Of a stretch of DNA of 64,000 nt, positions 1 to 63,310 are shown one piece after another. Source of the DNA: an uncultured Thermoleophilia bacterium (lineage in GTDB: Bacteria; Actinomycetota; Thermoleophilia; UBA2241). Numbering within the stretch: position 1 is the first letter of the stretch; each line of letters opens with the position of its first letter. The notes under the pieces were generated by a model. The model did not search any database. It worked only from the letters and a program-made list of their open reading frames with translations, and had not been told where the DNA came from. The stretch lies in NCBI GenBank assembly GCA_963735345.1, contig CAVTKL010000013.1, positions 193,130 to 257,129 of the forward strand, given 5' to 3'. The translations under genes were made by a program, and so were the position numbers.

Positions 1-470
1 ATCATGGCCGCGAGCAGCACCAGCGAGACGAGCTCGAACGGCAACACGTACCGGTTGAACAAGAGAGAAGAGAGCTCCCTGACGCCCGGATTGAGCGTCT
101 TCTCGCCGATCGGGCCGATGTCCGCCGCGACGATCGTCACGCTGATCGCGGCGGCGGCGAGCGCGGCCAAGACGGCGGCGGCGATGGCTTGCCGGTTGAA
201 GAACTGCCGATACTCGCCGTCCTGCACCTCGGTGAGCATGATCGCGAAGAGGATGACGATCGAGATGGCCCCGACGTACACGAGGATCTGCATGATGGCG
301 ATCAGCTCGGCGTGCAGCAGCGCATAGGCGAAAGCCACGCCGAGGAAGCACAGCACCATCGACACGGCGGAGTACATGACCTTCTTGGAGGCGACGACGC
401 CGAGCGCGCACACGAGCACCCACGCGGCGACGATGACGAACAGCCAAGGATGGAAGTCGCCGCCCGGCAT
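1..470 (-). CDS. nuoJ: NADH-quinone oxidoreductase subunit J (NuoJ), 5' portion; the gene continues past the window start
   Basis: Reverse translation from 470 gives MPGGDFHPWLFVIVAAWVLVCALGVVASKKVMYSAVSMVLCFLGVAFAYALLHAELIAIMQILVYVGAISIVILFAIML..., a multi-TM NuoJ-like sequence. There is an AAGGAG RBS 7 nt upstream. The start overlaps the stop of the upstream gene (TGATG). Confidence 0.7.
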   Translation of the reverse strand, partial: MPGGDFHPWLFVIVAAWVLVCALGVVASKKVMYSAVSMVLCFLGVAFAYALLHAELIAIMQILVYVGAISIVILFAIMLTEVQDGEYRQFFNRQAIAAAVLAALAAAAISVTIVAADIGPIGEKTLNPGVRELSSLLFNRYVLPFELVSLVLLAAM

Positions 471-2953
471 CAGTCTCCTTCGCCGTCAAGGTCGACCGGA
501 TCGCCCTTGATCGGCTCCCAGACGAAGCCGAGACCGAGCTGGGCCTCAAGGACGTGGGGGACCAGGTCGGTGACCGTCTCGCGCAGCACGTCGACGGGCT
601 GTGGCTTCCGCACGTAGAGCGACTCGCCCGCCAGGGCCGTACGGCTGAATCCGGCGAGCTCGAAGAGGCTGGTCTGCTCCAAGGCGTTGTACGGGCAGAC
701 CTCGACGCACTCCCCGCAGAACATGCAGCGGCTCTCGTCGAGCCCATAGCGCTCGAGCTGCCGTGGATTGGTGACGATCGCCCCCGTCGGACACGTCTCG
801 GCGCACTTGCCGCACGACACGCAGCCGACCATCTGCAGAGGCAGGTTGTCGGCCGTACTGACGATCATGTCGAAGCCACGGCCCATGTTGTCGTAGCAGC
901 TCGCGCCCACCTCGCTCCGGCAGACGCGGACGCAGCGTCCGCAGTCGATGCAGCGGTTGGGCTCGCGCATGATGAAATCGTGACGGAAGTCGGCGGCGTA
1001 GTCGTGGGCGTCGCCGCCGTGGAAGCGGTTGCGGAACACCTCGTACTCGATGCCGTGCCGCTGCAGCCAGCAGCTTCCGTTGCTGGGGCAGTAGCAGTCG
1101 AGACAGCGCGCCGCACCCTCCACGGCGCTCGCTTCGCTGAAGCCGAGCTCGACTTGGGCGAAGGTCCCGCGCCGCTCCTCAGGGGCAAGCTTGGGCATCT
1201 CCGACGGCGGGCACGGCTTGCTCACGTCGGTGGTCATGTCGATGAACACCGGGGGGATCTCCGCCATGCGCGCGATGCGCGGGTCGATGTCGCCCTTGGC
1301 GGTCAGGGCGTCGACGAACGGCGTCGCCCGCAGACGCGCGAGCTGCTCGGAGACGGCCGCCATGTCGGCGCCACGCAGGAAGGCGTCGATGCTCCAGGCC
1401 GCCTTCTTGCCCTGCGCCACCGCCTGGATCACGGTCTGCGCGCCGAGCACCGCGTCACCGCCGGCGAAGACGCGCGGATCGGCGGTCTGATAGGTCCAGT
1501 CGTCCACCTTGATGGTGCGCCACTTGGTGCGCTTCACGCCCTGCGCCTCGCTGGTGCCGTCGAGGGCGGGGTAGTGGCCGATGGCGGCGATGACTTGATC
1601 GCAGGCGACGATGAACTCGGAGCCCTCCACGGGCACCGGACGGCGCCGCCCGGAGGCGTCTGGCTCGCCCAGCGCCATGCGCTGCATCTCGATGCCGGTC
1701 ACTCTGTCCGCGGCATGGCGGTGAAGACGGTCGGTGATGATCCTCACGGGTGCGCACAGCAGCTCAAGCTTGACGCCCTCTTCCTCGGCCTCGTCGACCT
1801 CGCTTTCGTGGGCGGGCATCTCCTTGCGCGACCTGCGGTACAGACAGATCACCTCCCTGGCGCCCCTGCGCACTGCGGTGCGACAGGCGTCCATGGCGGT
1901 GAAGCCGCCGCCGATGACGACGACCCTCTCGCCCACGTGCACATCGCCATCGCGCTCCAGGTCCCCGAGGAGACCAGCAGCGGAGACGACCCCGTCCGCG
2001 TCCTCGCCTGGGATGCCCAACGCGTTGCTGCCGCAGGCGCCCAACGCCAGGAAGACGGCGTCGTGGTCCTCGAGCAGGCTCTCGAGCTCATAGTCGACGC
2101 CGAGCCGGATGCCCGCCTGCAGCTTGACGCCCATGCGCCACAGGACATTGATCTCCTTGTCGAGGATCTCGCGCGGCAGACGATAGCTGGGGATGCCGTA
2201 GCGCAACATGCCGCCCGGTTTGGGCATCGCCTCGAAGATCGTGACTGCATGTCCCTCGAGCCGGGCGTAGAAGGCAGCGGCGAGGCCAGACGGCCCGCCG
2301 CCCACGATCGCCAGGCGCTTGCCTGAATCCGGCTTGGGATCGACCGGCAGCAGCAGCTCGCCGTCCTGCTCCTCATCGAGGCACTGGTCGGCCATGAAGC
2401 GGTGGAGCTGGCAGATCGTGATGGACTGGTCGACCAGCTGACGGCGACACGGTCCTTCGCAGGGCCGCGGGCAGACGCGCCCGAGGATGGCCGGGAAAGG
2501 CAGGTCCTCGCGCAGCTTGCGCACACCGTTCTTGTAGTCTTGGTGCGCCACGAAGTCGAGGAACTGCGGGATCTTGATGTGCGTCGGGCAGGCGTCGCGG
2601 CAGGGTGGCGTGCAGAACGAGTTGTGGCTGCTGAGGAGCAGTTCGAGGTACAGATGGCGCATGGCGCGCACTTTGTCGGTGTTGGTGCGCACGACCATGC
2701 CCGCCGCGACGGCGGTCGTGCAGCTCGTCATGACCTTGCGCGCGCCCTCGACCTCGACGATACACAGGCGGCAGGCGCCCGAGGCGGGAAGCCGCGGCTC
2801 GTAGCACAGGGTCGGGATGTGGATGCCGACGCGGCGCGCCGCCTCGAGGACGGTCTCGCCGGGACTGCAGACCACGTCCTGATCGTCGATCGTCACCACG
2901 ATCTCGGTGGATCGGGACTGACTGCGCACGGTCGTGTCGGTGGGAGCGGCCAT
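470..2953 (-). CDS. NuoG/HoxU-like Fe-S subunit lacking the molybdopterin-like domain. Domain order is NuoG-type 2Fe-2S ferredoxin, a complete glutamate-synthase-small-subunit (GltD/NfnB)-like NAD(P)H flavoprotein module, the NuoG His/Cys-cluster and 4Fe-4S region, and a C-terminal NuoI-like 2x[4Fe-4S] ferredoxin
   Basis: 827 aa. N-terminus: CSPGETVLEAARRVGIHIPTLCYEPRLPASGACRLCIVEV (NuoG 2Fe-2S). GltD motifs follow: CTPPCRDACPTHIKIPQF, ILGRVCPRPCEGPC and GKRLAIVGGGPSGLAAAFY...VVVIGGGFTAMDCARTA. NuoG-like segments: CLDCYCPSNGSCWLQ and RCIDCGRCVRVC...GFDMIVST...GCVSCGKCAETCPTGAI. Final RCMFCGECVEVCPYNAL...SLFELAGF...SLY resembles the NuoI C-terminus. The stop overlaps the nuoJ start. Confidence 0.85.
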   Translation of the reverse strand: MAAPTDTTVRSQSRSTEIVVTIDDQDVVCSPGETVLEAARRVGIHIPTLCYEPRLPASGACRLCIVEVEGARKVMTSCTTAVAAGMVVRTNTDKVRAMRHLYLELLLSSHNSFCTPPCRDACPTHIKIPQFLDFVAHQDYKNGVRKLREDLPFPAILGRVCPRPCEGPCRRQLVDQSITICQLHRFMADQCLDEEQDGELLLPVDPKPDSGKRLAIVGGGPSGLAAAFYARLEGHAVTIFEAMPKPGGMLRYGIPSYRLPREILDKEINVLWRMGVKLQAGIRLGVDYELESLLEDHDAVFLALGACGSNALGIPGEDADGVVSAAGLLGDLERDGDVHVGERVVVIGGGFTAMDACRTAVRRGAREVICLYRRSRKEMPAHESEVDEAEEEGVKLELLCAPVRIITDRLHRHAADRVTGIEMQRMALGEPDASGRRRPVPVEGSEFIVACDQVIAAIGHYPALDGTSEAQGVKRTKWRTIKVDDWTYQTADPRVFAGGDAVLGAQTVIQAVAQGKKAAWSIDAFLRGADMAAVSEQLARLRATPFVDALTAKGDIDPRIARMAEIPPVFIDMTTDVSKPCPPSEMPKLAPEERRGTFAQVELGFSEASAVEGAARCLDCYCPSNGSCWLQRHGIEYEVFRNRFHGGDAHDYAADFRHDFIMREPNRCIDCGRCVRVCRSEVGASCYDNMGRGFDMIVSTADNLPLQMVGCVSCGKCAETCPTGAIVTNPRQLERYGLDESRCMFCGECVEVCPYNALEQTSLFELAGFSRTALAGESLYVRKPQPVDVLRETVTDLVPHVLEAQLGLGFVWEPIKGDPVDLDGEGD

Positions 2954-2959
2954 GATCGT

Positions 2960-4873
2960 CTACTCGCCAGGGCCGGCGATCGCCGCCGCCTGCTCGCTGC
3001 CGGTCCAGACCTTGACCGCGCCGAACTTGCACACCTGCCGGCAGGTGTCGCACTTGATGCAGGCGCTGGTGTCGATGACGTGCGGCAGCTTCTTCTCGCC
3101 GGCGATGCAGGAGGTTGGGCATTTGCGGGCGCAGAGCGTGCAGCCGGTACAGGCGTCGGCGTCGATGTAGTACGTGATGAGCGCCTTGCAGCGACCGGCC
3201 GGGCAGCGCTTCTCGTTGATATGCGCCTCCAGCTCATCGTGGAAGTAGCGCAGCGTGGTGAGCACCGGGTTGGGCGCCGTGCCGCCGAGCGCGCACAGCG
3301 AGCCCTCGATGACGTACGCGGAAAGCTCCTCGAGCAGTTCGATGTCTCCCTCGCGCCCGTCGCCGGCGGTGATACGCATGAGCGTCTCGAGCATGCGCTT
3401 GGTGCCCAGACGGCAGGGCACGCACTTGCCGCACGATTCGTCCTGCGTGAACTGCAGGAAGTAGCGTGCCAGGTCGACCATGCAGGTGGTGTCGTCGACC
3501 ACGACCAGGCCGCCGGATCCGACGATCGCGCCCGAGGCGGCCAGCACCTCGTAGTCGACCTGCGTGTCGAGCATCTCGCCGGGCAGGCAACCGCCCGAGG
3601 GCCCGCCGAGCTGCACGGCCTTGAAGGAGCGGCCCGGCAGCATGCCCCCACCGATGTCGAAGATGATGTGCCGCAGCGTGGCGCCCATCGGCACCTCCAC
3701 CAGGCCGCCGTTGGCCACCTTGCCGGTGAGCGAGAAGATCTTGGTGCCGCGCGAGTCGCCCATGCCCATCTCGGCGAAGGCCTCGGCGCCGTGCCGCACG
3801 ATCCAGGGAATGTTGGCGAACGTCTCGACGTTGTTGATGTTGGTCGGCCGACCCCACAAGCCCGACACGGCCGGGAACGGCGGACGCGTGCGCGGCATGC
3901 CGCGCTTGCCCTCGATGCTGGCGATCAGGGCTGTCTCCTCGCCGCAGACGAACGCGCCGGCGCCCTCGCTGATGAACACGTCGAAGGCGAAGCCCGAGCC
4001 GAGGATGTCGGCGCCCAGCAGACCGCGCTCGCGCGCCTGGACGATGGCGGCGCCCAGGCGCTCGACGGCGAAGGGGTACTCGGCGCGCACGTAAACGTAG
4101 CCTTCGTGTGCGCCGATCGCGTACGCCGCGATCGTCATGCCCTCGAGGATCACATGTGGGTTGCCTTCGAGGACCGACCGGTCCATGAAGGCGCCCGGGT
4201 CGCCCTCGTCGGCGTTGCAGATGACGTACTTGATGTCGCCCTTGGCCTTGCGCGCGAAGTCCCACTTCGTCCCGGTGGAGAATCCCGCGCCACCGCGTCC
4301 GCGCAGGCCCGAACGCGCGACCACGGCGATGACTGCCTCGGGATCGTCGTCGGCGAGCGTCTCGGCCAGAGCGGCGTACCCGCCGTTCACGAGATAGTCG
4401 TCGATCGAGTAGGGATCGATCTTGCCGTTGAGCGCCAGCACGAGGCGACGCTGCCCTTTGTAGAAGGGTATGTCGGCCTCGTTGGCCAGCGCCTCGCCGC
4501 TCACGGGATCACGGTAGAGGATCTTGTCGGCCGCGCCCTCGACGCCTTGCACGCCCGCCGCGATGATGGCGGGCACGTCCTGCGGGCGCACGTGCGGGTA
4601 GAAGAGACCCTTGGGATGGACGACGACGATGGGGCCTTGCTCGCAGAAGCCGTGACAGCCCGTCTCGACGATGGGGACGGCATCGGTGAGGCCCAGGGCA
4701 GCCAGCTCCGTTTTGATCGCCTCACGCACCGCCAGGCGCCCCGAGGCGTGGCAGGCGGTGCCGGCGCAGATGCGCAGCTCGAGGGCGCCCTCGTGCGCCA
4801 CGACGCTCTCGGGTCGCAGAGCCCGGCACAGGGCTTCGTCCACAGCCGCGGCCCGTGGCGTGACGGGGCTCAC
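2960..4873 (-). CDS. nuoF: NADH dehydrogenase flavoprotein subunit of HydB/HoxF/FdsB type: NuoF core with an N-terminal thioredoxin-like [2Fe-2S] domain and a C-terminal 2x[4Fe-4S] ferredoxin domain
   Basis: 637 aa (canonical NuoF is ~440 aa). N-terminal CAGTACHASG...CHGFCEQGP (NuoE-like). Core GRGGAGFSTGTKW...ICNADEGDPGAF (FMN/NADH site), SCGKCVPCR (N3 cluster). C-terminal CTGCTLCARKCP...CIKCDTCRQVCKFGA. GTG start overlaps the upstream stop (GTGA). Confidence 0.9.
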   Translation of the reverse strand: MSPVTPRAAAVDEALCRALRPESVVAHEGALELRICAGTACHASGRLAVREAIKTELAALGLTDAVPIVETGCHGFCEQGPIVVVHPKGLFYPHVRPQDVPAIIAAGVQGVEGAADKILYRDPVSGEALANEADIPFYKGQRRLVLALNGKIDPYSIDDYLVNGGYAALAETLADDDPEAVIAVVARSGLRGRGGAGFSTGTKWDFARKAKGDIKYVICNADEGDPGAFMDRSVLEGNPHVILEGMTIAAYAIGAHEGYVYVRAEYPFAVERLGAAIVQARERGLLGADILGSGFAFDVFISEGAGAFVCGEETALIASIEGKRGMPRTRPPFPAVSGLWGRPTNINNVETFANIPWIVRHGAEAFAEMGMGDSRGTKIFSLTGKVANGGLVEVPMGATLRHIIFDIGGGMLPGRSFKAVQLGGPSGGCLPGEMLDTQVDYEVLAASGAIVGSGGLVVVDDTTCMVDLARYFLQFTQDESCGKCVPCRLGTKRMLETLMRITAGDGREGDIELLEELSAYVIEGSLCALGGTAPNPVLTTLRYFHDELEAHINEKRCPAGRCKALITYYIDADACTGCTLCARKCPTSCIAGEKKLPHVIDTSACIKCDTCRQVCKFGAVKVWTGSEQAAAIAGPGE

Positions 4874-5628
4874 TCGACGCCCTCCCGCCGACGCAGGTCG
4901 ATGACTGTCTTGCGCGCCTTGTCCGGGGTCATGCGGCCGAGCGTCTCGCTCTCACCCACGCGCACCACCGGCGCCAGCGCGCAGGCGCCGACGCAGCTCA
5001 CGGCCTCCAGGGTGAAGAGGCCGTCCTTGGAGGTCTTGCCGACCTCCACGCCGATCACCTCCGAGAAGGCCGCGGTGATGAGCGGCGCCCCCGCCACGTG
5101 ACAGGCCGTGCCCTGGCAGACAGTGATGATGTGCTTGCCCACAGCCGAGAGGCGGAACTGATTGTAGAAGCTGACGACGCCGTAGATCTGCGAGAGCGAC
5201 ATCCCGGTCTGCAGGGCGATCTCGTGGATGGCCACGCGCGGCAGGAAGCCGTACACGTCCTGCGTGTTCTGCAGGATGGCGATGAGGCCGGTGCCGCGCT
5301 CGTAGTAGTCGTCGAGCACCGGGCGCAGCAACTGGAGGTCGATGCCGGGCTGCGCGTCCAGACGGGCGCGCGAGATGCGCGCCACGTTGGGCGCCGGGAG
5401 ATGGTACTTGCTGGAGTGCTCGACGCGGATCACCTGCACGGGGCAGTTGGTCTCGCACAGCGTGCACGAGCGACAGCGCGGCGCGCCGGTCTGCGGGTCG
5501 ACGACGACGCTGAAGAGGCCGCGGCTGCGCTCGGGCAGCGTCTCGCGCTGCTCGGGATACTGCACGGTGAGCTTCTTGGTCGGCAGGTGGCGCAGCGTCG
5601 TGCGCATGGCTTTGAGCATGCCGAGCAT
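4870..5628 (-). CDS. In-frame fusion of the N-terminal half of NuoI (one CxxCxxCxxxCP motif) with a complete NuoE/HydC-like thioredoxin-fold [2Fe-2S] domain
   Basis: Starts MLGMLKAMRTTLRHLPTKKLTVQYPEQRETLPERSRGLFSV...CRSCTLCETNCP (NuoI N-terminal signature). It then runs directly into LLRPVLDDYYERGTGLIAILQNTQDVYGFLP...SQIYGVVSFYNQFRL...ITVCQGTACHVAG...VSCVGACALAPVV (NuoE). The ATG overlaps the nuoH stop (TGATG) and the stop overlaps the nuoF-like GTG. Confidence 0.8.
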   Translation of the reverse strand: MLGMLKAMRTTLRHLPTKKLTVQYPEQRETLPERSRGLFSVVVDPQTGAPRCRSCTLCETNCPVQVIRVEHSSKYHLPAPNVARISRARLDAQPGIDLQLLRPVLDDYYERGTGLIAILQNTQDVYGFLPRVAIHEIALQTGMSLSQIYGVVSFYNQFRLSAVGKHIITVCQGTACHVAGAPLITAAFSEVIGVEVGKTSKDGLFTLEAVSCVGACALAPVVRVGESETLGRMTPDKARKTVIDLRRREGVE

Positions 5629-6749
5629 CAGGCGCTCATGACCGACACGCGGGACCGCTGCCGGCGCAGCCGCCACTTGAGGACGGGATCGAGCAGCAGG
5701 ACGAACGCCAGGAGCGCGAGCCAACTGAAGACGGCCAAGCCGTACTTCCACTGCGGCACCCAGAGCATGACGGCGCCGGTGGCCAGGATGTTGAGCAGGC
5801 CGAGGGGGATGAGGATCTTCCAGGCGAAGGCCATGAGCTGGTCGACCTGCAGCCGCGGGAGAGAGAGCCTGATCCAGACCAGCATGAACACCAGGACGTA
5901 CGTCTTGACGAGGAACCAGACGAGCGGCATCCAGGAGACGCCCCAGAAGCTGACCGCGTCCTCGAAGGGGCCGTGCCACCCGCCGAAGAACAGCGTCACG
6001 GTCACCATCGACATGATCGTCAGGCCCGCGTACTCGTTGAGGAAGAACATACCGAAGCGCATGCCTGAGTACTCCGTGCCGTAGCCGGCGACGAGCTCGG
6101 ATTCGGACTCCGGCAGGTCGAACGGGCCACGGTTCAGCTCGGCGATCGAGGCGACGTAGAAGATGAAGAACGTGAACGGCGCATAGAAGGCGATCCACTG
6201 GTAACCGGCCTGCGCCGCGACGACGTCGTCGAGGCGCAGCGAGCCGACGACCATGGCGACGACCAGCAGGGCGAGGATCATCGGGATCTCGTAGCTGATC
6301 ATCTGCGCGGCGCCGCGCAGGGCGCCGACCAGTGAGTACTTGTTGTTCGACGACCAGCCGCCGAGCAGGATCGCCAGTGTCGTGAATCCGGTGATGGCGA
6401 CGATGAAGATGAGGCCGACGTCGAGGTCGGTGGCCACCAGGCCCTTCGCGTAAGGCACGACACTCTGGATCGCCACGGCGCCGACCATGACCATGATCGG
6501 CGCCAGGGTGAAGAGGTAGGGGTCGGCCAGCGTGGGGCGGAAGTCCTCCTTGCCCATCATCTTGATGGCGTCGGCGACACTCTGCAGCATGCCCTGGGGC
6601 CCGGTACGGTTGGGGCCCAGACGATCCTGCATGAGGGCCAGGACGCGGCGCTCGTAGACGATGTTGACGAGCGCCGACACCATCACGACCGTATAGGCGA
6701 TGAGCACGAAGAGGACGGCGCGCAGGACGCCCATGAGGAGGTCGCTCAT
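5628..6749 (-). CDS. nuoH: NADH-quinone oxidoreductase subunit H
   Basis: MSDLLMGVLRAVLFVLIAY...GPNRTGPQGMLQSVADAIKMMGKEDF...EYSGMRFGMFFLNEYA...; polytopic membrane protein. Start chosen at the internal Met that gives an ATGA overlap with the nuoD stop. Confidence 0.9.
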   Translation of the reverse strand: MSDLLMGVLRAVLFVLIAYTVVMVSALVNIVYERRVLALMQDRLGPNRTGPQGMLQSVADAIKMMGKEDFRPTLADPYLFTLAPIMVMVGAVAIQSVVPYAKGLVATDLDVGLIFIVAITGFTTLAILLGGWSSNNKYSLVGALRGAAQMISYEIPMILALLVVAMVVGSLRLDDVVAAQAGYQWIAFYAPFTFFIFYVASIAELNRGPFDLPESESELVAGYGTEYSGMRFGMFFLNEYAGLTIMSMVTVTLFFGGWHGPFEDAVSFWGVSWMPLVWFLVKTYVLVFMLVWIRLSLPRLQVDQLMAFAWKILIPLGLLNILATGAVMLWVPQWKYGLAVFSWLALLAFVLLLDPVLKWRLRRQRSRVSVMSA

Positions 6750-7960
6750 CGGTCGATGCCCCCGAGGACGAGGTCCATGCTGCCCGATATCGCCACGGCG
6801 TCGGCGATCTTGTTGCCGCGCAGGAGCTTGGGGAAGATCTGCAGGTTCATGAAGCAGGGGTCGCGGAACTTGAGGCGGTACGGGTAGCGCGACCCGTCGC
6901 TGATGATGTAGGTGCCGTACTCGCCGCGCGGGTTCTCCTGCGCCGTGTAGCACTCGCCGGGGGGCGGCGTGATGGCGTAGGGGGCGCGCAACGAGCCGTT
7001 CTGGACCGCCCCCTTGGGCAACATGTCGAGCGCCTGCTCCACGATCTTCACGGACTGGCGCATCTCGTCCATGCGCACCTGGTAGCGATCGTAGACGTCG
7101 CCGTGCCGGCCCAGCGGCAGCTCGAAGTCGAGCTCCGGGTAGACGGAGTACGGGCGCGTGCGGCGCAGGTCGTGAGCGACCCCCGAGGCGCGCGCGTTGG
7201 GCCCGGTGATGGCGTAGTCGACCACGTCCTGCTGGGTGATGACGCCCTTGCCCATGCAGCGCTGCAGAAAGATCGCGTTGCGCTGCACCAGGGCCTCGTA
7301 CTCGTCGATGAGTCTGGGCATCTTGCGCATGACCTCGCGGCAGTCCTCGACCCAGCCGTCCGGCAGGTCGTAGCGGACCCCGCCGAAGCGGAAGTAGTTG
7401 AACATCATGCGCGCGCCGCTCACCTCCTCGAGCAGATCGAGGATGGGCTCGCGATCACGGAACATGTAGAAGAGCATGGCCGTCCCCAGCGGCGCCAGAT
7501 CGGCGGTGAACGTGCCGACGGCGACCAGATGGCTGGCGATGCGGTTGAGCTCGGCCATGATCACGCGGATGAACTCCGCCCGCCGCGTCGGCCGTATTCC
7601 GGCCAGCCTCTCGACGGTCATGACGTAGCCCCACTCGCAGTTCATCCCCGCCAGGTACTCCGTGCGATCGACGATGGGGATGTACTGGTAGTAGGTGCGC
7701 TTCTCGGCGATCTTCTCTTTGCAGCGGTGGAGATAGCCGACCACCGGGATCACGTCCTTGACGAGCTCTCCGTCAAGGGTGACGACGAGCCGCAGGACTC
7801 CGTGCGTCGAGGGATGCTGCGGCCCCATGTTGACGATGACCTCGTTGAACGTGAGGCCCTCCAGGTTCGAGCCCTCGCCGAGGGCGTACGCCTCGTCGAT
7901 GCGCCGCTGCGCGAGCTTGACGGCCTCGTCGGGAAGGGCTGTGGCGAACTGGTCAGACAT
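6746..7960 (-). CDS. nuoD: NADH-quinone oxidoreductase subunit D
   Basis: 404 aa; NMGPQHPSTHGVLRL..., NCEWGYVMTVERL..., RxxDPCF... Confidence 0.92.
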   Translation of the reverse strand: MSDQFATALPDEAVKLAQRRIDEAYALGEGSNLEGLTFNEVIVNMGPQHPSTHGVLRLVVTLDGELVKDVIPVVGYLHRCKEKIAEKRTYYQYIPIVDRTEYLAGMNCEWGYVMTVERLAGIRPTRRAEFIRVIMAELNRIASHLVAVGTFTADLAPLGTAMLFYMFRDREPILDLLEEVSGARMMFNYFRFGGVRYDLPDGWVEDCREVMRKMPRLIDEYEALVQRNAIFLQRCMGKGVITQQDVVDYAITGPNARASGVAHDLRRTRPYSVYPELDFELPLGRHGDVYDRYQVRMDEMRQSVKIVEQALDMLPKGAVQNGSLRAPYAITPPPGECYTAQENPRGEYGTYIISDGSRYPYRLKFRDPCFMNLQIFPKLLRGNKIADAVAISGSMDLVLGGIDR

Positions 7961-8447
7961 GCGGGTGGTTCTCGATGAGGTCGACGTAGTCCTTGCGCAG
8001 CGGATACCCGACGAAGTCGTCCTTGAGCAGGATGCGGCGCAGGTCGGGATGATCCGTGAAGCGGATGCCGAACATGTCCCACGCCTCGCGTTCGAGCCAC
8101 TCGGCGGCCGGCCACACGTCGCAGACGGTCACCACCTCGGCGTCCGTGGACGGCAGCTCCACGTACAGCTGGAAGTACGTGTTGGTCTTCCAGCTGTAGA
8201 GGTGGTACACGCTTTCGAGACGCGTGACCCGGTCGACCCCGGCGATCCAATTGAGCGTCTCATAGCCGATCTCGGCTTCAGCCTTGAGCCGGCGCGCCAC
8301 GTCCTTGAGCTTCGCCTTGTCGCAACGCGCCACGACCGTGTCCGGTTCCTGCACGCGCACGTCCTCGAGGTCGCCGGCGAAAGCGGCCGCCAGACGCTCG
8401 GCGATCGCATCCATCGCCATGAGGTTCGCGCCGATCTCCAGCGCCAT
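7953..8447 (-). CDS. nuoC: NADH-quinone oxidoreductase subunit C
   Basis: 164 aa; ...YHLYSWKTNTYFQLYVELP...EREAWDMFGIRF... Confidence 0.88.
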   Translation of the reverse strand: MALEIGANLMAMDAIAERLAAAFAGDLEDVRVQEPDTVVARCDKAKLKDVARRLKAEAEIGYETLNWIAGVDRVTRLESVYHLYSWKTNTYFQLYVELPSTDAEVVTVCDVWPAAEWLEREAWDMFGIRFTDHPDLRRILLKDDFVGYPLRKDYVDLIENHPHV

Positions 8448-8452
8448 GCGCG

Positions 8453-9001
8453 TCAGCCCCTTTCGGCGTCGGTCGCCGACGGCAGGATCGGCACGAAGGA
8501 GTGCCGCTCGATCTTCTTCTGCAGTTCGAGAAGGCCCTGGAACAGGGCCTCAGGGCGGGGCGGGCAGCCGGGGATGTAGACATCGACCGGTACCACCTTG
8601 TCGACCCCGTTGACCACGTTGTAGCCATCGTAGAACGGGCCCCCGCTGTTGGCGCAGGCGCCCATGCTCATGACCCACTTGGGCTCGGACATCTGATCGT
8701 AGAGCCGCTTGAGCACGGGAGCCATCTTCTCGTTGAGCGTACCGGCGACGATCATCAGGTCGCACTGGCGCGGGGTCGGCCGGAAGATCTCCATGCCGAA
8801 GCGCGCGATGTCGTAGCGGGCGAACCCGGAGCTGAGCATCTCGATGGCGCAACAGGCGAGCCCGTACTGAAACGGGAAGACGGAGTGCGACCGCGCCCAG
8901 CTGAAGATGAGATCGGTGGTCGTGGTGATGACGTTGGGCTGCTGGAAGTGCTCGAGCTTGGGGTAGCGGATCCGGGCTTGACGGGAGCTGTCGGCGCTCA
9001 T
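8453..9001 (-). CDS. nuoB: NADH-quinone oxidoreductase subunit B
   Basis: Starts at the internal Met MSADSS... (ATGA overlap with nuoA). [20 protein letters not shown] and PGCPPRPEA are the N2 cluster ligand motifs. Confidence 0.9.
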
Positions 9002-9366
9002 GCCCACTCGAGGGCACCCTTGCGCCACGCATAGACCAGGCCGAAGCCCAGCACGGCGACGAAGATCACCATCTCGACGAACCCCGCCGTCCCCAGGCCG
9101 CGGAACACGAGCGTCCACGGGAAGAGAAACACGGCTTCGACGTCGAACACGAGAAAGAGCAAGCCGAACACGAAGTAGCGCACGGCGAACGGCGACCAAG
9201 GGCGCCCGACCGGGGGGATCCCGCACTCGTAGGACGCGAGCTTCTCAGGCGTGAGGTGCTCCGGGTTCACCAGCTTCGAGAACAGAAGGATGAGCACGAC
9301 GAGGGCACCGCCCGCAGCGATGAAGAGCCCGATGTACACCCAATTGATGAGGTATGCGTCAGTCAT
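8998..9366 (-). CDS. nuoA: NADH-quinone oxidoreductase subunit A
   Basis: 122 aa; ...[53 protein letters not shown]... Confidence 0.9.
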
Positions 9367-9436
9367 CCGAACCCGCCACGAGAAAAGTCAAGGACCCGCA
9401 CACCGGAAGGAACCCGGGGCGAGTCGCTGGAGCGTC

Positions 9437-9466
9437 AATATACCAAAAGCGGCTTCGGCCACGCAA
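9437..9466 (-). promoter_or_regulatory. Candidate sigma-70-type promoter for the nuo operon
   Basis: The minus strand reads TTGCGT-18 nt-TATATT about 75-100 nt upstream of the nuoA ATG. Confidence 0.3.
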
Positions 9467-9551
9467 ATTAACCGGCTCCGCGGAGACCGCCGACGCCGCA
9501 TGAGTGACTTGCAGGTGTTTTCCAGCACCGCCCCGCCGCGGCGACGCCGCG

Positions 9552-9580
9552 TTGACCGCCCCTTCCGCCCCGCCTAAGAT
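9552..9580 (+). promoter_or_regulatory. Candidate sigma-70-type promoter for tatA-tatC
   Basis: TTGACC-17 nt-TAAGAT, 35 nt upstream of the tatA GTG; AAGGAA RBS follows. Confidence 0.45.
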
Positions 9581-9614
9581 GGGTTGACTCATTCCCGGCG
9601 CAAGGAACCACCCC

Positions 9615-10172
9615 GTGAACATCGGCCCCATGGAGATCGCGATCGTGCTCATCCTCGCGCTCCTCGTCTTCGGCCCCAAGCGCCTGCCACAGGCGGGCCG
9701 CAGTTTGGGCCAGGCGCTGCGTGAGCTCAAGAAGGCGACGTCATCGGCGCGCTCCGAGCTCGGTCTCGACGACGTCGCCGCGGATGTCAAGGATCTCAAG
9801 TCCAGCCTCACCATCGACCTCAAGGCGACCGACGCGCCCGCACCGCCGCGGCCCGTCGACAGCCCCGCCGGAATGGCCGCTGCCGCTACGACCGCGGCCG
9901 TCGTCGACGTGCTGCCCGCCGCCGCGGCCCCGCCGGAGGCGGAGGCCGCGACCGCTGAGGCACCGGACGAGACCGAGCCCGCCACCCCGGACACGGCCGA
10001 GCTCGTCGCCCCGGAGGAGACCGAGCCCGTCGCCCCGGACACGGCAGCCGCGCCCGCCGAGGCCCCCGAAGCCGTGGTGGGACCGGAGGCGGAGGCGACC
10101 CTCGCCACGGAGACCGCGCCGCCGGAGCCCGAAGACGCATCTACGACACCCTCCGGGCAAAGCGCGCTCTGA
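9615..10172 (+). CDS. tatA: Twin-arginine translocase TatA/TatB-family protein with a long acidic Ala/Pro/Glu-rich C-terminal tail
   Basis: MNIGPMEIAIVLILALLVFGPKRLPQAGRSLGQALRELKK is the TatA/E signature. The tail carries repeated ETEP(A/V)(T/A)PDTA segments. Confidence 0.85.
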   Translation: MNIGPMEIAIVLILALLVFGPKRLPQAGRSLGQALRELKKATSSARSELGLDDVAADVKDLKSSLTIDLKATDAPAPPRPVDSPAGMAAAATTAAVVDVLPAAAAPPEAEAATAEAPDETEPATPDTAELVAPEETEPVAPDTAAAPAEAPEAVVGPEAEATLATETAPPEPEDASTTPSGQSAL

Positions 10173-10180
10173 GGCGCTCT

Positions 10181-10972
10181 GTGGCGGCCTCCCCCGAAGA
10201 CACCTTCACCGTCCTCGAACACCTGGACGAACTGCGCAAGCGCATGTTCTGGGTGATCGTGGTGCTGATCGCCGGCGTCATCGGGGCGGCCATCTTCAAC
10301 GACCGCCTCTTCGATCTGCTGCTCTATCCGCTCAATCAGGTGTCGGGCCTCGATGTCGACTCATACAAGATCATCACGCTGAGCCCGACTGAGCCATTCA
10401 TGGTCAGCCTCAAGGTCTGGGTCGTGGCGAGCCTGCTCATCACCTCTCCGTTCCTCATCTGGCAACTCTGGGCGTTCGTCGGGCCGGCGTTCACGAGCAC
10501 CGAGAAGCGCTATTTCTATCCCGTGGTGCTGGCGACCATCGCCCTGTTTCTCGGCGGGGTGGCCTTCGGCTACCTCATCGTGCTTCCCAAGGGCCTCTCG
10601 TTCCTGCTCAACTTCGGCGGTTCGACCTTCAACGTGCAGAACCGCGCCTCGGAGTACTTCACCTTCGTGGCTCTCTTCATCCTCGCCTTCGGCGCCATCT
10701 TCGAGCTGCCGGTCATCCTCGTGCTGCTTGCCAAGGTCGGGGTGATCGACGACAAGTTCCTGCGCAAGAACCGCCGCTATGCGATCGTCATCAGCGCCCT
10801 CGTGGCGGCCATCCTCACCCCGGGCCAGGATGCGTTCTCGATGGTCGCGATGCTCGTCCCTCTCCTGGTCCTCTACGAGGTCTCGATTCCTATCGCGCGT
10901 CTCGTGCAGCCCAAGCCGGAGGGATCAGCAGGCGCGAAAGACGCGGACGACCTCGCCGCGGGGGCGACCTGA
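10181..10972 (+). CDS. tatC: Twin-arginine translocase subunit TatC
   Basis: 263 aa, 6-TM; LEHLDELRKRMFWVI...; adjacent to tatA. Confidence 0.88.
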   Translation: MAASPEDTFTVLEHLDELRKRMFWVIVVLIAGVIGAAIFNDRLFDLLLYPLNQVSGLDVDSYKIITLSPTEPFMVSLKVWVVASLLITSPFLIWQLWAFVGPAFTSTEKRYFYPVVLATIALFLGGVAFGYLIVLPKGLSFLLNFGGSTFNVQNRASEYFTFVALFILAFGAIFELPVILVLLAKVGVIDDKFLRKNRRYAIVISALVAAILTPGQDAFSMVAMLVPLLVLYEVSIPIARLVQPKPEGSAGAKDADDLAAGAT

Positions 10973-11122
10973 CCCTTCGCGACGTTCTGCCGCGGCGCGT
11001 GGCCGGGATGCGTCTCGCGCCGGCGAAGCGAACGCCGGCGGACGCTCGCGCGTCTCATGAAGGACCGGCGTTCGAGCGCCGCACGCAGGTGCGCGCCGCC
11101 ACATCGAGTACAATGAGGATAC

Positions 11123-13348
11123 ATGGCTGATCAGGAGCGACATCGCGACACCCCTGAAGAGCTCCGGCGCCAGCATCGGCAGCGCGAACGACGCCGGCCC
11201 AAGCCGCGCAAGCGGGTGTGGCTCAGGGTCATCTTCCTTGTGTTCGCGCTACTCGTCATCGCCGCGATCGGGATGGGCGCCGGCGGCATCTTCGCCCTCT
11301 CGCGCAACTTGCCGTCCCTCGAGAATCTCGAGCGCCGACCGAACGCCGTCAACACGACGATCTACGACCGCAACGGCGTGAAGTTCGCCGAACTGCACGG
11401 CGCCGAGAACCGTGTCATCGTCGCGAGCACCAAGATCCCCGACGCGATGAAGCAGGCGACGGTCGCCACCGAGGACGCGCGCTTCTACACCCATCACGGC
11501 GTCGACATGCAGGGCATCGCCCGCGCCCTCGTCGAGAACCTGCGGGCCGGCGGCATCGTCCAGGGCGGTTCGACCATCACCGAGCAGTACGTCAAGAACG
11601 CCTATGTGGGCAACGAGCGCACGTACACACGCAAGCTGCGCGAGGCGGTGCTCGCGTGGGAACTGGAAGACAAGTGGTCGAAAGACAAGATCCTCACCGA
11701 GTACCTCAACACCGTCTACTACGGCGCCGGCGCCTACGGCGTCGAGGCGGCGGCGCGCACCTACTTCCACAAGCGCGCCTCACAGCTCACGCTGGAGGAG
11801 TCGGCCCTGCTCGCGGCGCTGCCGAAGTTCCCGACCCGCTACTCTCCGACGACCGACCCCAAAGAGGCCAAGAAACGCCGCAACATCGTCCTCGACCTCA
11901 TGGCCACGCACGGCTACATCACCGCCGAGAAGGCGGCCTCCGCCAAGAAGCGCAAGCTGGGCGTCTACAAGCACCCGCCCTCGCTGAACAACAGTCTGGC
12001 CGACTACTTCACCGACTACGTGACGCGCGTGCTCACCAAGCGCTACGGCACGCGCCAGGTGTTCGAGGGCGGTCTCAAGGTCTATACCAGCATCGACTTG
12101 AAGTGGCAGCAGGAAGCTATCGACATCATCAAGGGCACCACCGACCCACTGAACTTCGGATTCAAGCCTTCAGCGGCACTGGTGGCGATCGACCCCAAGA
12201 ACGGCTACATCCGCACGATGGTCGGCGGTCTCGACTACAAGAAGCAGAAGTTCAACCTGGCCTGGCAAGCCAAGCGCCAACCGGGGTCGTCGATGAAGCC
12301 CTTCGTGCTCACCGCCGCCGTGCTCCAGGGTATGAACCCTGACACCACGTACTACTCGTCACAGAGCCCGATCGTCATCCCGATGGGGTACGCGGCGCCG
12401 TGGATCGTGAACGGTGACGGCCCCGGCGGGCCGGAGACCGTGTCGCAGGCCACGACCATCTCCGACAACGTCGTCTACGCTCAACTCTCAGTCGATGTCG
12501 GCCCTGCGAACACGGCCGCGATCGCCCGCAAGATGGGCATCACCAGCAAGCTCGATGAGGTACCCTCCATCACGCTCGGAACCTCCGTCGTGAGCCCGCT
12601 CGAGATGGCCGACGCCTACGCCACGCTGGCGAGCGGCGGCATCCATCACCCACCGCAGGCGATCGTCAAGGTCGTGCTGCCCAACGGCCGCGTCGACTGG
12701 AGGCCCAAGACGAAGGGCAAGCGCGTTCTTCCGGCCGGCGTCGCCTCAGTCGTCACACAGTGCCTCGAGCGCGCCGCCACGAGCGGTACCGGCGCGCCCT
12801 CCGGGGCGTACTACCCGTACCCGCGCGCCGGCAAGACCGGCACCACCGAGAACGGCTGGGACGTCTGGTTCTGCGGCTACACGCCACAACTCGCCGCCGC
12901 GGTCTGGATGGGCGACTCGGAGAAGAACTCGCCCATGGACGGTGCTTACGGCGGAACGTACTGCGCGCCGATGTGGGCCAAGTTCTTCGCCAACGCGTTC
13001 GCAAACCAGGCGCACCCGGGGTTCACATACACACCCTGGTCCTTCAGCCCTTGGGACGGGGCATACTCCAAGATGTCGCCGTCCGCCTCACCGTCACCGT
13101 CGGGGAGTGGCGCGCCGACGCCGACGCCGACACCGACCAAGACGATCAAGCCGACACCGACCAAGACCCCGACGCCGACACCGACGCCGACACCGACCAA
13201 GACCCCCACGCCGACCCCGACGCCGACCCTCTCCGCGCCGGCGCGCGGCGAGGGCAAGGCCATCGCCGTCGAGTCGCGGACGGGTGACGGCTCGACCGGG
13301 ATCACGGGAGCCTTCGCCGGCTGGCTCTCGAGCCTCTTCGGCTTCTGA
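11123..13348 (+). CDS. Class A penicillin-binding protein (PBP1A): GT51 transglycosylase plus transpeptidase, with a C-terminal Pro/Thr repeat tail
   Basis: EDARFYTHHGVD...GGSTITEQYVKN (GT51); SSMKPF (SxxK); PT/PTK repeats at the C-terminus. Confidence 0.9.
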   Translation: MADQERHRDTPEELRRQHRQRERRRPKPRKRVWLRVIFLVFALLVIAAIGMGAGGIFALSRNLPSLENLERRPNAVNTTIYDRNGVKFAELHGAENRVIVASTKIPDAMKQATVATEDARFYTHHGVDMQGIARALVENLRAGGIVQGGSTITEQYVKNAYVGNERTYTRKLREAVLAWELEDKWSKDKILTEYLNTVYYGAGAYGVEAAARTYFHKRASQLTLEESALLAALPKFPTRYSPTTDPKEAKKRRNIVLDLMATHGYITAEKAASAKKRKLGVYKHPPSLNNSLADYFTDYVTRVLTKRYGTRQVFEGGLKVYTSIDLKWQQEAIDIIKGTTDPLNFGFKPSAALVAIDPKNGYIRTMVGGLDYKKQKFNLAWQAKRQPGSSMKPFVLTAAVLQGMNPDTTYYSSQSPIVIPMGYAAPWIVNGDGPGGPETVSQATTISDNVVYAQLSVDVGPANTAAIARKMGITSKLDEVPSITLGTSVVSPLEMADAYATLASGGIHHPPQAIVKVVLPNGRVDWRPKTKGKRVLPAGVASVVTQCLERAATSGTGAPSGAYYPYPRAGKTGTTENGWDVWFCGYTPQLAAAVWMGDSEKNSPMDGAYGGTYCAPMWAKFFANAFANQAHPGFTYTPWSFSPWDGAYSKMSPSASPSPSGSGAPTPTPTPTKTIKPTPTKTPTPTPTPTPTKTPTPTPTPTLSAPARGEGKAIAVESRTGDGSTGITGAFAGWLSSLFGF
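13116..13233 (+). repeat. Tandem CCGAC(N)CCGAC-type repeats encoding a (PT)n/PTK low-complexity tail within the PBP gene
   Basis: Direct inspection: ccgacgccgacaccgaccaagac... is reiterated. Confidence 0.7.
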
Positions 13349-13354
13349 CGCAGA

Positions 13355-13398
13355 GACGGCGACGGGCCGGGCAGTACTCAGCCCGGCCCGTCGCCGTC
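13355..13398. terminator. Perfect 18-bp GC-rich hairpin with an 8-nt loop between the convergent PBP and paaK genes; a probable bidirectional terminator (no U-tail)
   Basis: gacggcgacgggccgggc-agtactca-gcccggcccgtcgccgtc. Confidence 0.5.
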
Positions 13399-13424
13399 CA
13401 TTCGCGCCTGTCGAGCTACGTCTG

Positions 13425-14771
13425 TCAGAGAGCCGTGCGCCGGTCGACGACGCGCACGGCTTTGCCCTCAGAACGCTGGATCGTGCGCGGCTCCTTCAGC
13501 TTGACCGCCACCTGGATGTTGAGCACGCTGAAGATCCGCGACTGCACCTTTCTCTGGAAGCGTTCGAGGTCCCCCATGGTCTCCGGGAAGACGCCCTCGC
13601 CCACTTCCACCCAGACCTCGATGACGTCCAGGAAGCCCTCGCGATCGACCACGATCTGATAGTGCGGCTCGATCTCCGGTATGCTCATCAGGACTTCCTC
13701 GATCTGACTCGGGAAGACGTTGACGCCTCTGATGATGAGCATGTCGTCGCTGCGCCCGATGGGCTTGCTCATGCGCAGGGACGTGCGCCCGCAGGCACAC
13801 GGGCTCGAGTCCAGACTGCAGAGGTCGCGCGTACGGTAGCGGATGAGCGGCTGCGCCTGACGCGAGAGGGTCGTGAAGACGAGCTCGCCGACCGTTCCCT
13901 CGGGCAGAGGCTGCAGCGTCTCGGGGTCGATGATCTCGGCAAGGTAGTGGTCTTCGTTCACGTGCATGCCGGCCTTGCAGAGGCATTCGAAGGCCACGCC
14001 CGGGCCGCCCATCTCAGAGAGACCGTAGATATCGAGAGCATCGATGCCGAGCGCGGCCTCGATGAGCGTACGCATCTCGTTGGTCCAGGGCTCGGCGCCG
14101 TGGAAGCCCACGCGGATCGGCAGATCCTCCGGCCGCAGGCCGCGGTCGCGGGCGGCGTCGCCCAGATACATCGCGTACGACGGCGTGCAGCTGAGCGCCG
14201 TGGCGCCGAAGTCGCGCATGATCTTGAGTTGACGCTCGGTGTTGCCCCCCGAGATCGGCACCACCGTGCAGCCCAGCCTCTCGGCGCCGAAGTGGAGGCC
14301 GAGGCCGCCCGTGAAGAGCCCATAACCGTAGGCGTTCTGAAGCAGATCGCCCGGCTGGATCCCTCCGGCGGCCAGCGTACGCGCGATCAGATCACCCCAC
14401 GTGTCGATGTCGGCGCGAGTGTACCCGACGGTGGTCGGGTTCCCGGTCGTGCCCGATGAGGCGTGTACTCGCACGATCTGCGCGCGCGGCCGGGCGAACA
14501 TGCCGAACGGGTAGTGGTCGCGCAGGTCGGTCTTGGTGGTGAAGGGCAGACGCGAGACATCGGCGCGCGAGGCCACGTAGTCGGGGGCGATCCCGGCCTG
14601 CTCCAGGCTCTTGCGATAGAACGGTACGTTCGCGCGGGCGTTCTCGAGGACGGCCCGCAGACGCTCCATCTGCACCTCGGCGAGCGCCTCACGCGGCAGT
14701 GTCTCGGCCTCCGGCTCCCACATCAAGCCGCCGCAGAGGTCGGGGAGGAGATGCTCGTCGTGAGCGCTCAC
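13425..14771 (-). CDS. paaK: Phenylacetate-CoA ligase family protein (PaaK / arylacetate-CoA ligase)
   Basis: ...VPFYRKSLEQAGIAPDYVASRADVSRLPFTTKTDLRDHYPFGMFA...SSGTTGNPT...; ATGA overlap with the upstream ACT gene. Confidence 0.85.
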   Translation of the reverse strand: MSAHDEHLLPDLCGGLMWEPEAETLPREALAEVQMERLRAVLENARANVPFYRKSLEQAGIAPDYVASRADVSRLPFTTKTDLRDHYPFGMFARPRAQIVRVHASSGTTGNPTTVGYTRADIDTWGDLIARTLAAGGIQPGDLLQNAYGYGLFTGGLGLHFGAERLGCTVVPISGGNTERQLKIMRDFGATALSCTPSYAMYLGDAARDRGLRPEDLPIRVGFHGAEPWTNEMRTLIEAALGIDALDIYGLSEMGGPGVAFECLCKAGMHVNEDHYLAEIIDPETLQPLPEGTVGELVFTTLSRQAQPLIRYRTRDLCSLDSSPCACGRTSLRMSKPIGRSDDMLIIRGVNVFPSQIEEVLMSIPEIEPHYQIVVDREGFLDVIEVWVEVGEGVFPETMGDLERFQRKVQSRIFSVLNIQVAVKLKEPRTIQRSEGKAVRVVDRRTAL

Positions 14772-15181
14772 AGCGCGCGCACCTCCTCGTCGCTCAGCAG
14801 TGTCACCTTGCCGCGCAGCAAGTCGATGGCGCGGTCGATGTCGTGCACCGCGAAGCAGATGTTCTGGAAGGAGATGCTGTAGAGATAGTCGATGGAGACG
14901 CCGGCGGCGGCAAGCGTGTCGAGCACCTCCGCGAGGCCGCCCGGCTGGTCAGGCACGCGCACGCACAGCACCTGCGAGAAGTGGGTCGTGAAGCCGGCAT
15001 CGTGCAGGAGCGCCCGCGCGGTTGCGGGATCGGTCACGATGAGCCGCAGAATGCCGTACTCGGCGGCTTCCGTGGTGGAGAACCCGCGGATGTTGATGCC
15101 CGCCTTCCCCAGAAGGTCGGCCACCTCAGCGAGACGGCCACTTCGATTCTCGAGAAACAGGGTGAGCTGTGTGACCTTCAC
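14768..15181 (-). CDS. ACT-domain protein (small regulatory partner common in ior/paaK clusters)
   Basis: Only the C-terminal 137 aa of the 340-aa ORF is protein-like (VKVTQLTLFLENRSGRLAEVADLLGKAGINIRGF...). The GTG start overlaps the iorB stop. Confidence 0.65.
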   Translation of the reverse strand: MKVTQLTLFLENRSGRLAEVADLLGKAGINIRGFSTTEAAEYGILRLIVTDPATARALLHDAGFTTHFSQVLCVRVPDQPGGLAEVLDTLAAAGVSIDYLYSISFQNICFAVHDIDRAIDLLRGKVTLLSDEEVRAL

Positions 15182-17594: not shown

Positions 17595-17640
17595 TCGGCT
17601 GCCAGCCGGCCGACGCCGACCCGCCTTCCCAGCCCGTCCT

Positions 17641-35290: not shown

Positions 35291-35352
35291 TTGCCTGCGG
35301 GTGTCCGCTCCGCCGCTCTGCGTGTGTGCGGCTATAGTACAGGTTCGGCGGG

Positions 35353-57494: not shown

Positions 57495-57499
57495 GCGCC

Positions 57500-60705: not shown

Positions 60706-60723
60706 GGCGAGGAGACCAGCACG

Positions 60724-63264: not shown

Positions 63265-63310
63265 CCCAGCACCTCCAGTGATGCTCAGTCGTGGGCCGGC
63301 CGTCCCGGGC

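Follow-up and report, generated by a model that had tools for sequence, protein, structure and literature searches.

The Bfu family (BfuABC) was defined by Schut et al. 2022 (PMC9304861). The same work predicts a 'Nuo-Bfu' complex I for Geobacter, Deferribacteres, Planctomycetes and Nitrospirae, in which a bifurcating BfuABC-type NADH module, encoded in the middle of the nuo cluster, replaces NuoEFG of the 14-subunit enzyme. Neither a GltD/NADPH module nor a split NuoI is mentioned there. Among solved structures, the system described here is best matched by NfnABC and StnABC (Bfu type 1; PDB 9bov, 8oh5, 9n5u). These enzymes are soluble. In their BfuA, an FAD/NADPH module resembling GltD separates the [2Fe-2S] domain from the Cys-cluster region, and the C-terminus is formed by an inactive, formate-dehydrogenase-like (FdhF-like) domain (about 470 amino acids (aa), tetramer-mediating). 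Here we analyse a stretch of 64,000 nucleotides (nt) from an uncultured soil bacterium of the Thermoleophilia (Actinomycetota; assembly GCA_963735345.1, contig CAVTKL010000013.1, positions 193,130 to 257,129), referred to as the window. Its first part covers the input module of a nuo operon that is complete with 14 genes. A three-gene cassette of the NfnABC/Stn type, comprising BfuC (NuoE-like), BfuB (named F* below) and BfuA (G*), is placed inside the nuoI gene of this operon, in the loop between the two 4Fe-4S motifs of NuoI.

The nuo block and the genes of the cassette all lie on the minus strand, to which the coordinates of this operon refer, in the tightly spaced order nuoA-B-C-D-H-[NuoI N-half::NuoE]-F*-G*-nuoJ, as seen from the list of open reading frames (ORFs), their translation and Pfam. 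nuoA (8998-9366, 122 aa; Oxidored_q4, 7.4e-36) is followed by nuoB (8453-9001, 182 aa; Oxidored_q6, 1.6e-28), nuoC (7953-8447, 164 aa; Complex1_30kDa, 2.9e-39), nuoD (6746-7960, 404 aa; Complex1_49kDa, 8.6e-94) and nuoH (5628-6749, 373 aa; NADHdh, 5.6e-113). Then come I'::E, the N-half of NuoI fused to a NuoE-like domain (4870-5628, 252 aa), the BfuB/HydB-type NuoF called F* (2960-4873, 637 aa), the NfnA/StnC-type subunit G* (470-2953, 827 aa) and the 5' part of nuoJ (1-470), which is assigned from its translation and is cut by the window edge. The Pfam E-values of the inserted genes are far too low for chance matches. The putative N2-cluster motifs CCxxE, GACxxxG and GCPP are seen in NuoB, the last one in the form GCPPRPE, and NuoD has the motif QHPSTHG; both were read straight from the translation, the latter as candidate quinone-site residues.

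nuoD and nuoH overlap by ATGA with no E, F or G gene between them, which is the NUO11-type order and agrees with the original prediction. That prediction also held every junction to be coupled. Overlaps are indeed present at six of the eight junctions (ATGA twice, GTGA once, TGATG twice and 8 nt once), but gaps of 5-6 nt separate nuoB from nuoC and F* from G*. GC content and GC at third codon positions (GC3) are even across the whole block. A look-up of the exact sequence of the window's G* gave no match. A contig from another sample (L081) encodes a G* that is 99% identical; by independent gene calls and Pfam, these genes are all present on it and nuoK, L, M and N come next, and a more distant relative (L004) likewise continues through nuoK, L, M and N. 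The observation behind the original prediction, its gene order included, therefore holds in nearly all particulars. All eleven core subunits (A, B, C, D, H, I, J, K, L, M and N) have their genes together, with the start of J in the window, J-N taken from these two contigs and NuoI present only as halves. A scan for promoters and terminators upstream of nuoA was uninformative.

By its sequence, nuoI is split in two, with the N-half on the NuoE-like protein and the C-half ending G*; it is not encoded as a single 2x[4Fe-4S] polypeptide. Within the 64-kb window there is no second copy of nuoI, E, F, D or H, and no canonical nuoEFG. The N-half (5398-5628; aa 1-77 of I'::E) comprises the N-terminal helix and the first CxxCxxCxxxCP motif (C52, C55, C58, C62), and its aa 4-72 match NDUFS8/NuoI with an E-value of about 1e-7. 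The C-half (473-769; aa 729-827 of G*) comprises the second CxxCxxCxxxCP motif (C743, C746, C749, C753) and the NuoI C-terminal tail, and the last ~100 aa of G* match the C-terminal halves of NdhI/NuoI at 3e-10. Against the NuoI profile NCBIfam TIGR01971 (121 positions, family cut-off 113 bits), aa 8-74 of I'::E occupy positions 2-66 with 48 bits and aa 729-774 of G* occupy positions 69-114 with 57.5 bits, while both pieces joined give 100.5 bits over positions 2-115. The joined sequence also aligns with plant NDUFS8 (7ar7_I; aa 4-118 on 23-136, E-value 4.3e-19) with no net indel. The motif count leads to the same domain. There are three CxxCxxCxxxC(P) motifs in G* and one in I', and two of those in G* form a HydA-like dicluster shared with NfnA, so that the orphan third motif of G* and the motif of I' together make one further complete 2x[4Fe-4S] domain. 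The four Cys of I' are invariant in 25 sequences, and all sixteen motif Cys are invariant across the family alignments.

Both junctions between the cassette and nuoI are in frame. When the cassette is removed and the halves of nuoI are rejoined, the NUO11 order A-B-C-D-H-I-J-K-L-M-N is restored. The original prediction placed the insertion between nuoH and nuoJ; this position stands, but the insertion is within nuoI, whose split had been missed. The simplest history would be that a headless operon received nfnC-B-A, cut before the FdhF-like domain, in one insertion into its nuoI gene, at the loop between the motifs. Such a single event would create both in-frame fusions together.

The matches of G* place it with NfnA and StnC, as a subunit of their type into which a GltD-like NADPH/FAD module is inserted. 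It begins with a NuoG/HydA-type [2Fe-2S] domain (2678-2908; aa 16-92, Fer2_4 8e-20). This is followed by the GltD/NfnB-like module (1349-2614; aa 114-535), which has 2x[4Fe-4S], FAD and an NADPH Rossmann fold and is recognised by Fer4_20 (1.8e-19) and Pyr_redox_2 (1e-30) over aa 114-515. Pfam also finds a Fer4 dicluster and a weak Fer4_Nqo3 match in G*. The GltD/NfnB-like module was predicted to be complete from its motifs CxxxCxxxCP, GRVCPxxCExxC and two Rossmann sites, and these are all present and invariant in 26 family members; a YRR motif is more than 90% conserved in the family, and the Cys ligands are invariant. Next is a region aligned to NfnA and StnC (770-1105), with a Cys cluster (C617, C620, C622, C628) and a HydA-type 2x[4Fe-4S] domain in which every Cys is invariant (motif A 668-678, motif B 711-721). 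The strongest structural match is Caldicellulosiruptor saccharolyticus NfnA (9bov_A; 2.5e-186, aa 19-751 against 5-700 of 1178), followed by StnC of Sporomusa ovata (8oh5_C; 1.5e-156) and archaeal NfnA (9n5u_A; 2.3e-148), and the GltD/NfnB-like part also matches 5jca_L. The alignment with NfnA (1178 aa) and StnC (1172 aa) stops near residue 700, G* itself ends at aa 827, and the C-half of NuoI stands where these proteins carry the FdhF-like domain. As had been claimed, no molybdopterin-like domain is detected: Molybdopterin and Molydop_binding give no Pfam match in G* at E<=0.01, and the 120 family members listed include none with a Molybdopterin domain. When G* was modelled by AlphaFold2 together with 26 homologues, pLDDT came to 75-94 in the [2Fe-2S] and GltD parts.

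F* can be assigned as a full BfuB/HydB-type flavoprotein, with the additional domains at both ends that the original prediction described. It consists of an N-terminal [2Fe-2S] domain (4559-4792; 2Fe-2S_thioredx, aa 28-105), the FMN/NADH domain (3806-4321; Complex1_51K, 4.7e-47), a [4Fe-4S] region (3221-3475; NADH_4Fe-4S, 7.7e-32) and a C-terminal 2x[4Fe-4S] ferredoxin-like domain with two Fer4 motifs (3014-3172), whose Cys motifs are kept in 12 related species. Over aa 33-620 it matches solved BfuB subunits (7t2r_B 2.6e-244, NfnB 9bov_B 9.2e-235, StnB 8oh5_B 1.8e-222; all solved BfuB matches fall between 1e-244 and 1e-220), whereas canonical Nqo1 matches over aa 143-556 only (1.7e-117). The NuoE/BfuC-like [2Fe-2S] thioredoxin-like domain of I'::E (4873-5346; aa 95-252, 2Fe-2S_thioredx 2e-41) has NfnC 9bov_C (1.3e-45) and StnA 8oh5_A as its top PDB matches. 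The Bfu core, that is BfuB with all four cofactor domains and the [2Fe-2S] of BfuC, is hence present with conserved Cys ligands, and the likeness of the triad to StnABC is borne out by the best matches of E, F* and G*. Those parts of the original interpretation that could be checked all held.

In comparison with NfnABC/Stn, the same three subunits occur here with the same domain order, and the GltD-like insert has the same place. However, the FdhF-like domain is replaced by the NuoI C-half, and BfuC, which has no NuoI half in the soluble enzymes, carries the NuoI N-half. The module is also encoded in a nuo operon and predicted to be membrane-attached, with quinone as an added substrate. The canonical 14-subunit complex I shares with the window operon the eleven core subunits and the E/F/G superfamilies, and candidate N2 ligands are seen in NuoB. 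In the window, however, the E/F/G genes are placed elsewhere than between nuoD and nuoH, NuoF carries additional Fe-S domains at both its N- and C-terminus, the molybdopterin-like domain of NuoG that normally docks the N-module is missing, and NuoI is on two polypeptides. The nuoD/nuoH overlap and the lack of a Molybdopterin Pfam match in G* thus set this operon apart from one with a canonical NuoEFG N-module. It differs from Nuo-Bfu, in which E-F-G of Geobacter are at the canonical position, in that its cassette lies within nuoI after nuoH and has an Nfn-type BfuA without the molybdopterin-like domain, and its actinobacterial host class is not among the clades named for Nuo-Bfu. The position of the cassette and its GltD module led us to reject assignment to canonical Nuo-Bfu. 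The backbone is that of NUO11 (nuoABCDHIJKLMN; Degli Esposti 2015, PMC4758237) once the cassette is removed and nuoI rejoined; NUO11 is without an NAD(P)H-oxidising module, and the window operon has gained one. The Mbx-like operons of the same study have a GltD-related flavoprotein at the NuoI position, which is a looser analogy, since they have neither a NuoE/NuoF-type module nor a split NuoI and, according to that study, are not quinone reductases.

The general idea of a bifurcating-type complex I is thus already published as Nuo-Bfu (PMC9304861). The term turned up in no paper of the literature searched other than Schut et al. 2022; this literature includes Spero 2015, Degli Esposti 2015, Schut 2022, two papers on Nfn-Bfu structures and the paper on Stn. 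In it we found no description of an Nfn-type, GltD-bearing complex I head, a cassette inside nuoI, a split NuoI, an enzyme of this kind whose NuoG has lost its C-terminal domain, or the Por-linked derivative presented below. The Nfn-type BfuA, its position and the split NuoI are therefore new as far as found. Public databases annotate the proteins in generic terms only ('FAD-dependent oxidoreductase', 'formate dehydrogenase major subunit', 'NAD(P)H-dependent oxidoreductase subunit E').

The arrangement recurs. A scan with one genome per species found it in 16 metagenome-assembled genomes (MAGs) labelled Thermoleophilia or 'Actinomycetes', with the order from nuoA to nuoJ complete in 11 and the same as far as the contig extends in the other 5; many of them have it on long contigs that are independent of each other, several of 0.1-2 Mb. 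The flanking synteny of tatA, tatC and PBP1 is conserved too. Among the 120 best clusters at 90% identity listed for I'::E, the proteins are 66-95% identical, each covers at least 95% of the query and nearly all are 245-265 aa long (one has 340), and the 120 clusters listed for G* are 69-99% identical with lengths of 807-880 aa. Since 16 MAGs at species level and over 100 clusters of proteins show it, the arrangement is no assembly artefact. The ratio of nonsynonymous to synonymous substitution rates (dN/dS, Nei-Gojobori) is 0.20-0.59 for the N-half of NuoI and 0.19-0.45 for the C-half, below 1 in 18 of 18 comparisons, with a baseline of 0.09-0.32 for NuoD and with dS compressed by a GC3 of about 0.9, and we take both halves to be under selection. 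Values near 1 for the GltD segment were discarded, because indels had disrupted its ungapped extraction.

Among 1.84 billion cluster representatives, which were searched exhaustively, there is a single distant I'::E of full length (P0244, 38% identity). A Logan contig from SRR22388304 (L082, 1-11858, 11.9 kb, 49% GC) shows the corresponding order nuoD-nuoH-I'::E-[F::GltD, 1048 aa]-[G, 265 aa]-nuoJKLMN. This second lineage amounts to only two clusters in a collection of 5.8 billion proteins, and its next relatives are Thermoleophilia proteins at about 40% identity. Its GltD module, 30% identical to the GltD part of G*, is at the C-terminus of NuoF, where the first lineage has the ferredoxin-type 2x[4Fe-4S] domain, and the F subunit on L082 is without that domain. 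The breakpoint is the same: P0244 covers positions 1-71 of the NuoI profile, and the short G ends in positions 69-114. We count this shared breakpoint as support for a single origin of the split. Both lineages keep the NuoF FMN module, the GltD NADPH module and the split NuoI despite their different domain layouts, which argues that NADPH input is a selected property, and the second layout speaks for ferredoxin coupling being dispensable in one lineage at least.

A paralogous cassette, about 45-65% identical, is found in 34 other actinobacterial loci among L017-L055 in the order porG-porD-porA-E'-F-G, and in three of these cases the nuo version is present in the MAG as well. A PorB-like region continues G directly in 30 loci, which are all those where the contig extends that far, and G::PorB is a single ORF of 1058 aa in L021 (operon 7593-15766). 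The Por-linked E' keeps a single N-terminal Fe-S motif and the Por-linked G keeps the third motif. When joined, the two pieces match the NuoI profile best (80.5 bits, positions 34-120), with 33.8 bits for the best family outside the complex-I/hydrogenase NuoI group and no PorD-type ferredoxin among the 25 best matches; their eight Cys coincide in an alignment with the nuo version. Hence the cassette appears to have moved with its NuoI remnants into a pyruvate:ferredoxin oxidoreductase operon. Por-Bfu of Dehalococcoides and others (Schut et al. 2022), with a Bfu module in a por cluster, is of the same general kind, but the Thermoleophilia paralogue is Nfn-type with a GltD insert, has NuoI-derived split-ferredoxin remnants and has BfuA fused to PorB.

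Related genes occur in other settings too. A stand-alone cassette (L050, 10067-13676), from a MAG labelled Coriobacteriia, has an E of 154 aa without I' and F and G subunits 76-80% identical to those of the window, although its contig stops before the C-terminus of G; it is likely of the soluble source type. A Coriobacteriales MAG (L057, 4725-20456) has HdrA/GltD-MvhD-like and MetV/MetF genes and, after them, BfuC-B-A of the formate dehydrogenase type; directly downstream of this BfuC-B-A lies an 11-subunit-type nuoABCDHIJ with an intact NuoI of 144 aa. The FdhA frame of L057 breaks at 13825/13838, possibly at a selenocysteine codon. Further E-F pairs of the BfuC/BfuB type, with no NuoG-like gene detected adjoining them, occur in Thermoleophilia MAGs (L066, 10001-12428; L073; L078), and one of these MAGs, from which L030 also comes, has the nuo version too.

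We suggest that the complex probably works as a forward proton-pumping oxidoreductase, which transfers electrons from NADH or NADPH, and possibly ferredoxin, to menaquinone. In this mechanism the halves of NuoI would re-associate to a normal 2x[4Fe-4S] NuoI domain docked on NuoB, NuoD and NuoH. The re-associated domain would both anchor the flavoprotein module and wire it electrically, and its docking would take over the role of the missing molybdopterin-like domain of NuoG. The FMN of F* would take up electrons from NADH, and the FAD in the GltD-like domain of G* those from NADPH; reduced ferredoxin could probably also donate electrons, at the C-terminal 2x[4Fe-4S] domain of F*. For Stn, the clusters C1/C2, which adjoin the FdhF-like domain, are described as a remnant without function, and tetramers as formed through that domain (PMC10482914); the clusters A4/A5 of Nfn are termed 'overflow' (PMC11829005). 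The chain of G* runs from the corresponding region directly into the NuoI C-half, with a spacing like that of polyferredoxins such as FwdF. The dead-end cluster branch of soluble Stn/Nfn would thereby be extended via N6a/N6b-like clusters to N2 and menaquinone. We infer the use of NADPH or ferredoxin, and the second lineage, which keeps GltD and has no ferredoxin-type domain on F, strengthens this.

The window also contains genes that touch on ferredoxin metabolism. IorA-like (15768-18008) and IorB-like (15178-15861) genes of an indolepyruvate:ferredoxin oxidoreductase, both on the minus strand, adjoin a PaaK-like aryl-acetate-CoA ligase gene (13425-14771, same strand) and indicate that the organism has a ferredoxin-dependent metabolism. 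Genes of FAD-linked oxidases (GlcD/D-LDH-like; 56130-57494 and 59095-60705) are followed by etfB (60724-61527) and etfA (61524-62600), with DsrE-like and CCG-domain genes nearby (56130-63991). This cluster resembles LDH/Etf-type, possibly bifurcating, clusters. Together the two gene groups make a ferredoxin pool plausible.

Several observations weigh against the forward dehydrogenase proposed here or against the re-association of NuoI on which it depends. Every genome with the arrangement is an uncultured MAG, and the joined score of NuoI is slightly below the family cut-off. With AlphaFold2, the joined NuoI run as one sequence reached a pLDDT of 39, too low to be of use, and pLDDT below 50 at aa 616-827 of G* makes the model of G* uninformative on the geometry of the NuoI C-half. 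Moreover, the whole bifurcation apparatus is conserved in the first lineage, and catalysis there may therefore be gated or coupled rather than that of a simple dehydrogenase. This last point leads to a rather unlikely alternative, in which quinone reduction obligately needs NADH (or NADPH) together with reduced ferredoxin at the FMN/B1/C1 flavobicluster, as proposed for Nuo-Bfu, or in which the complex is mainly an Nfn transhydrogenase with the quinone branch as a regulated overflow. It gains weight from F* and E, which keep every element of the Bfu core across 12 species and are about 60% identical to proven bifurcating enzymes, and from the published Nuo-Bfu hypothesis (PMC9304861). However, NADH, NADPH and ferredoxin are all far uphill of menaquinone, so coupling is thermodynamically unneeded, and the second lineage has no ferredoxin-type domain on F, yet keeps GltD and the split NuoI.

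Operation in reverse, with the proton motive force (pmf) and menaquinol driving the reduction of NADP+ and/or ferredoxin as a respiratory source of biosynthetic NADPH or low-potential electrons, seems improbable to us. Complex I and Nfn/Stn are both reversible enzymes, as reported for Stn (PMC10482914), and a Por-linked version of the cassette, as a possible producer or consumer of low-potential electrons, is present in the same genomes. On the other hand, the operon is apparently the sole complex I operon in these loci and lies in a housekeeping region (tatAC, PBP1, rpoD), which fits a primary forward dehydrogenase. It is very improbable that there is no physical union at all, that is, that the insertion of a soluble NfnABC operon has wrecked nuoI or the locus is an assembly chimera, so that the Nuo and Nfn-like proteins stay separate or the nuo operon is defunct. 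Close stand-alone relatives such as L050, with its E free of I', do exist. Against this, the in-frame junctions are conserved across the species-level MAGs and clusters counted above, all eight Cys of NuoI are invariant, its specific N-terminal helix and C-terminal tail are kept, dN/dS of its halves is below 1, the second lineage has the same breakpoint, and no intact nuoI is present in the operon or the window. Misassembly and a pseudogenised nuoI were both rejected on these grounds.

A further reading, which we hold only tentatively, treats the cassette with its split-NuoI ends as a portable redox 'plug', a bifurcating Nfn-type module that docks on unrelated enzymes via a two-piece ferredoxin connector; it would have provided a headless complex I with its head first and later have passed, NuoI remnants included, to an oxoacid:ferredoxin oxidoreductase. 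On complex I it would make a four-substrate machine (NADH, NADPH, ferredoxin and quinone) that couples bifurcation/confurcation to proton pumping, from which a reversible pmf-driven production of ferredoxin or NADPH could follow.

Should the proposed forward dehydrogenase be correct, it would be a natural and independent answer to the classic question of how a head that oxidises NAD(P)H came to be joined to the membrane/quinone core of complex I. This head would come from an Nfn/Stn-type enzyme, enter elsewhere in the operon and attach by covalent fusion to the halves of NuoI instead of by the molybdopterin-like domain of NuoG. The predicted direct acceptance of NADPH, and possibly ferredoxin, would alter redox-balance models for widespread uncultured soil Actinomycetota, and the operon makes it possible to examine whether bifurcation chemistry can be coupled to proton pumping, as the so far unproven Nuo-Bfu idea holds. 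A core Fe-S subunit that may work as two fragments on separate polypeptides, and seems to be re-used in a Por enzyme, is an unusually clear case of modular enzyme evolution and suggests a design principle for wiring redox modules together. The system is known from sequences of uncultured organisms alone and should be of high interest to specialists in complex I and bifurcation.

Two features elsewhere in the window are recorded here. An NAD(P)HX repair gene (YjeF_N and Carb_kinase; 31257-32838, minus strand) is read as two overlapping ORFs (31636-32838 and 31257-31919) between which the Carb_kinase profile is divided, which may reflect a frameshift or a sequencing error. An Rfam scan of the window returned nothing besides a glmS ribozyme (35143-35297, minus strand; RF00234, 90.4 bits), which lies directly upstream of glmS (33272-35098, minus strand).

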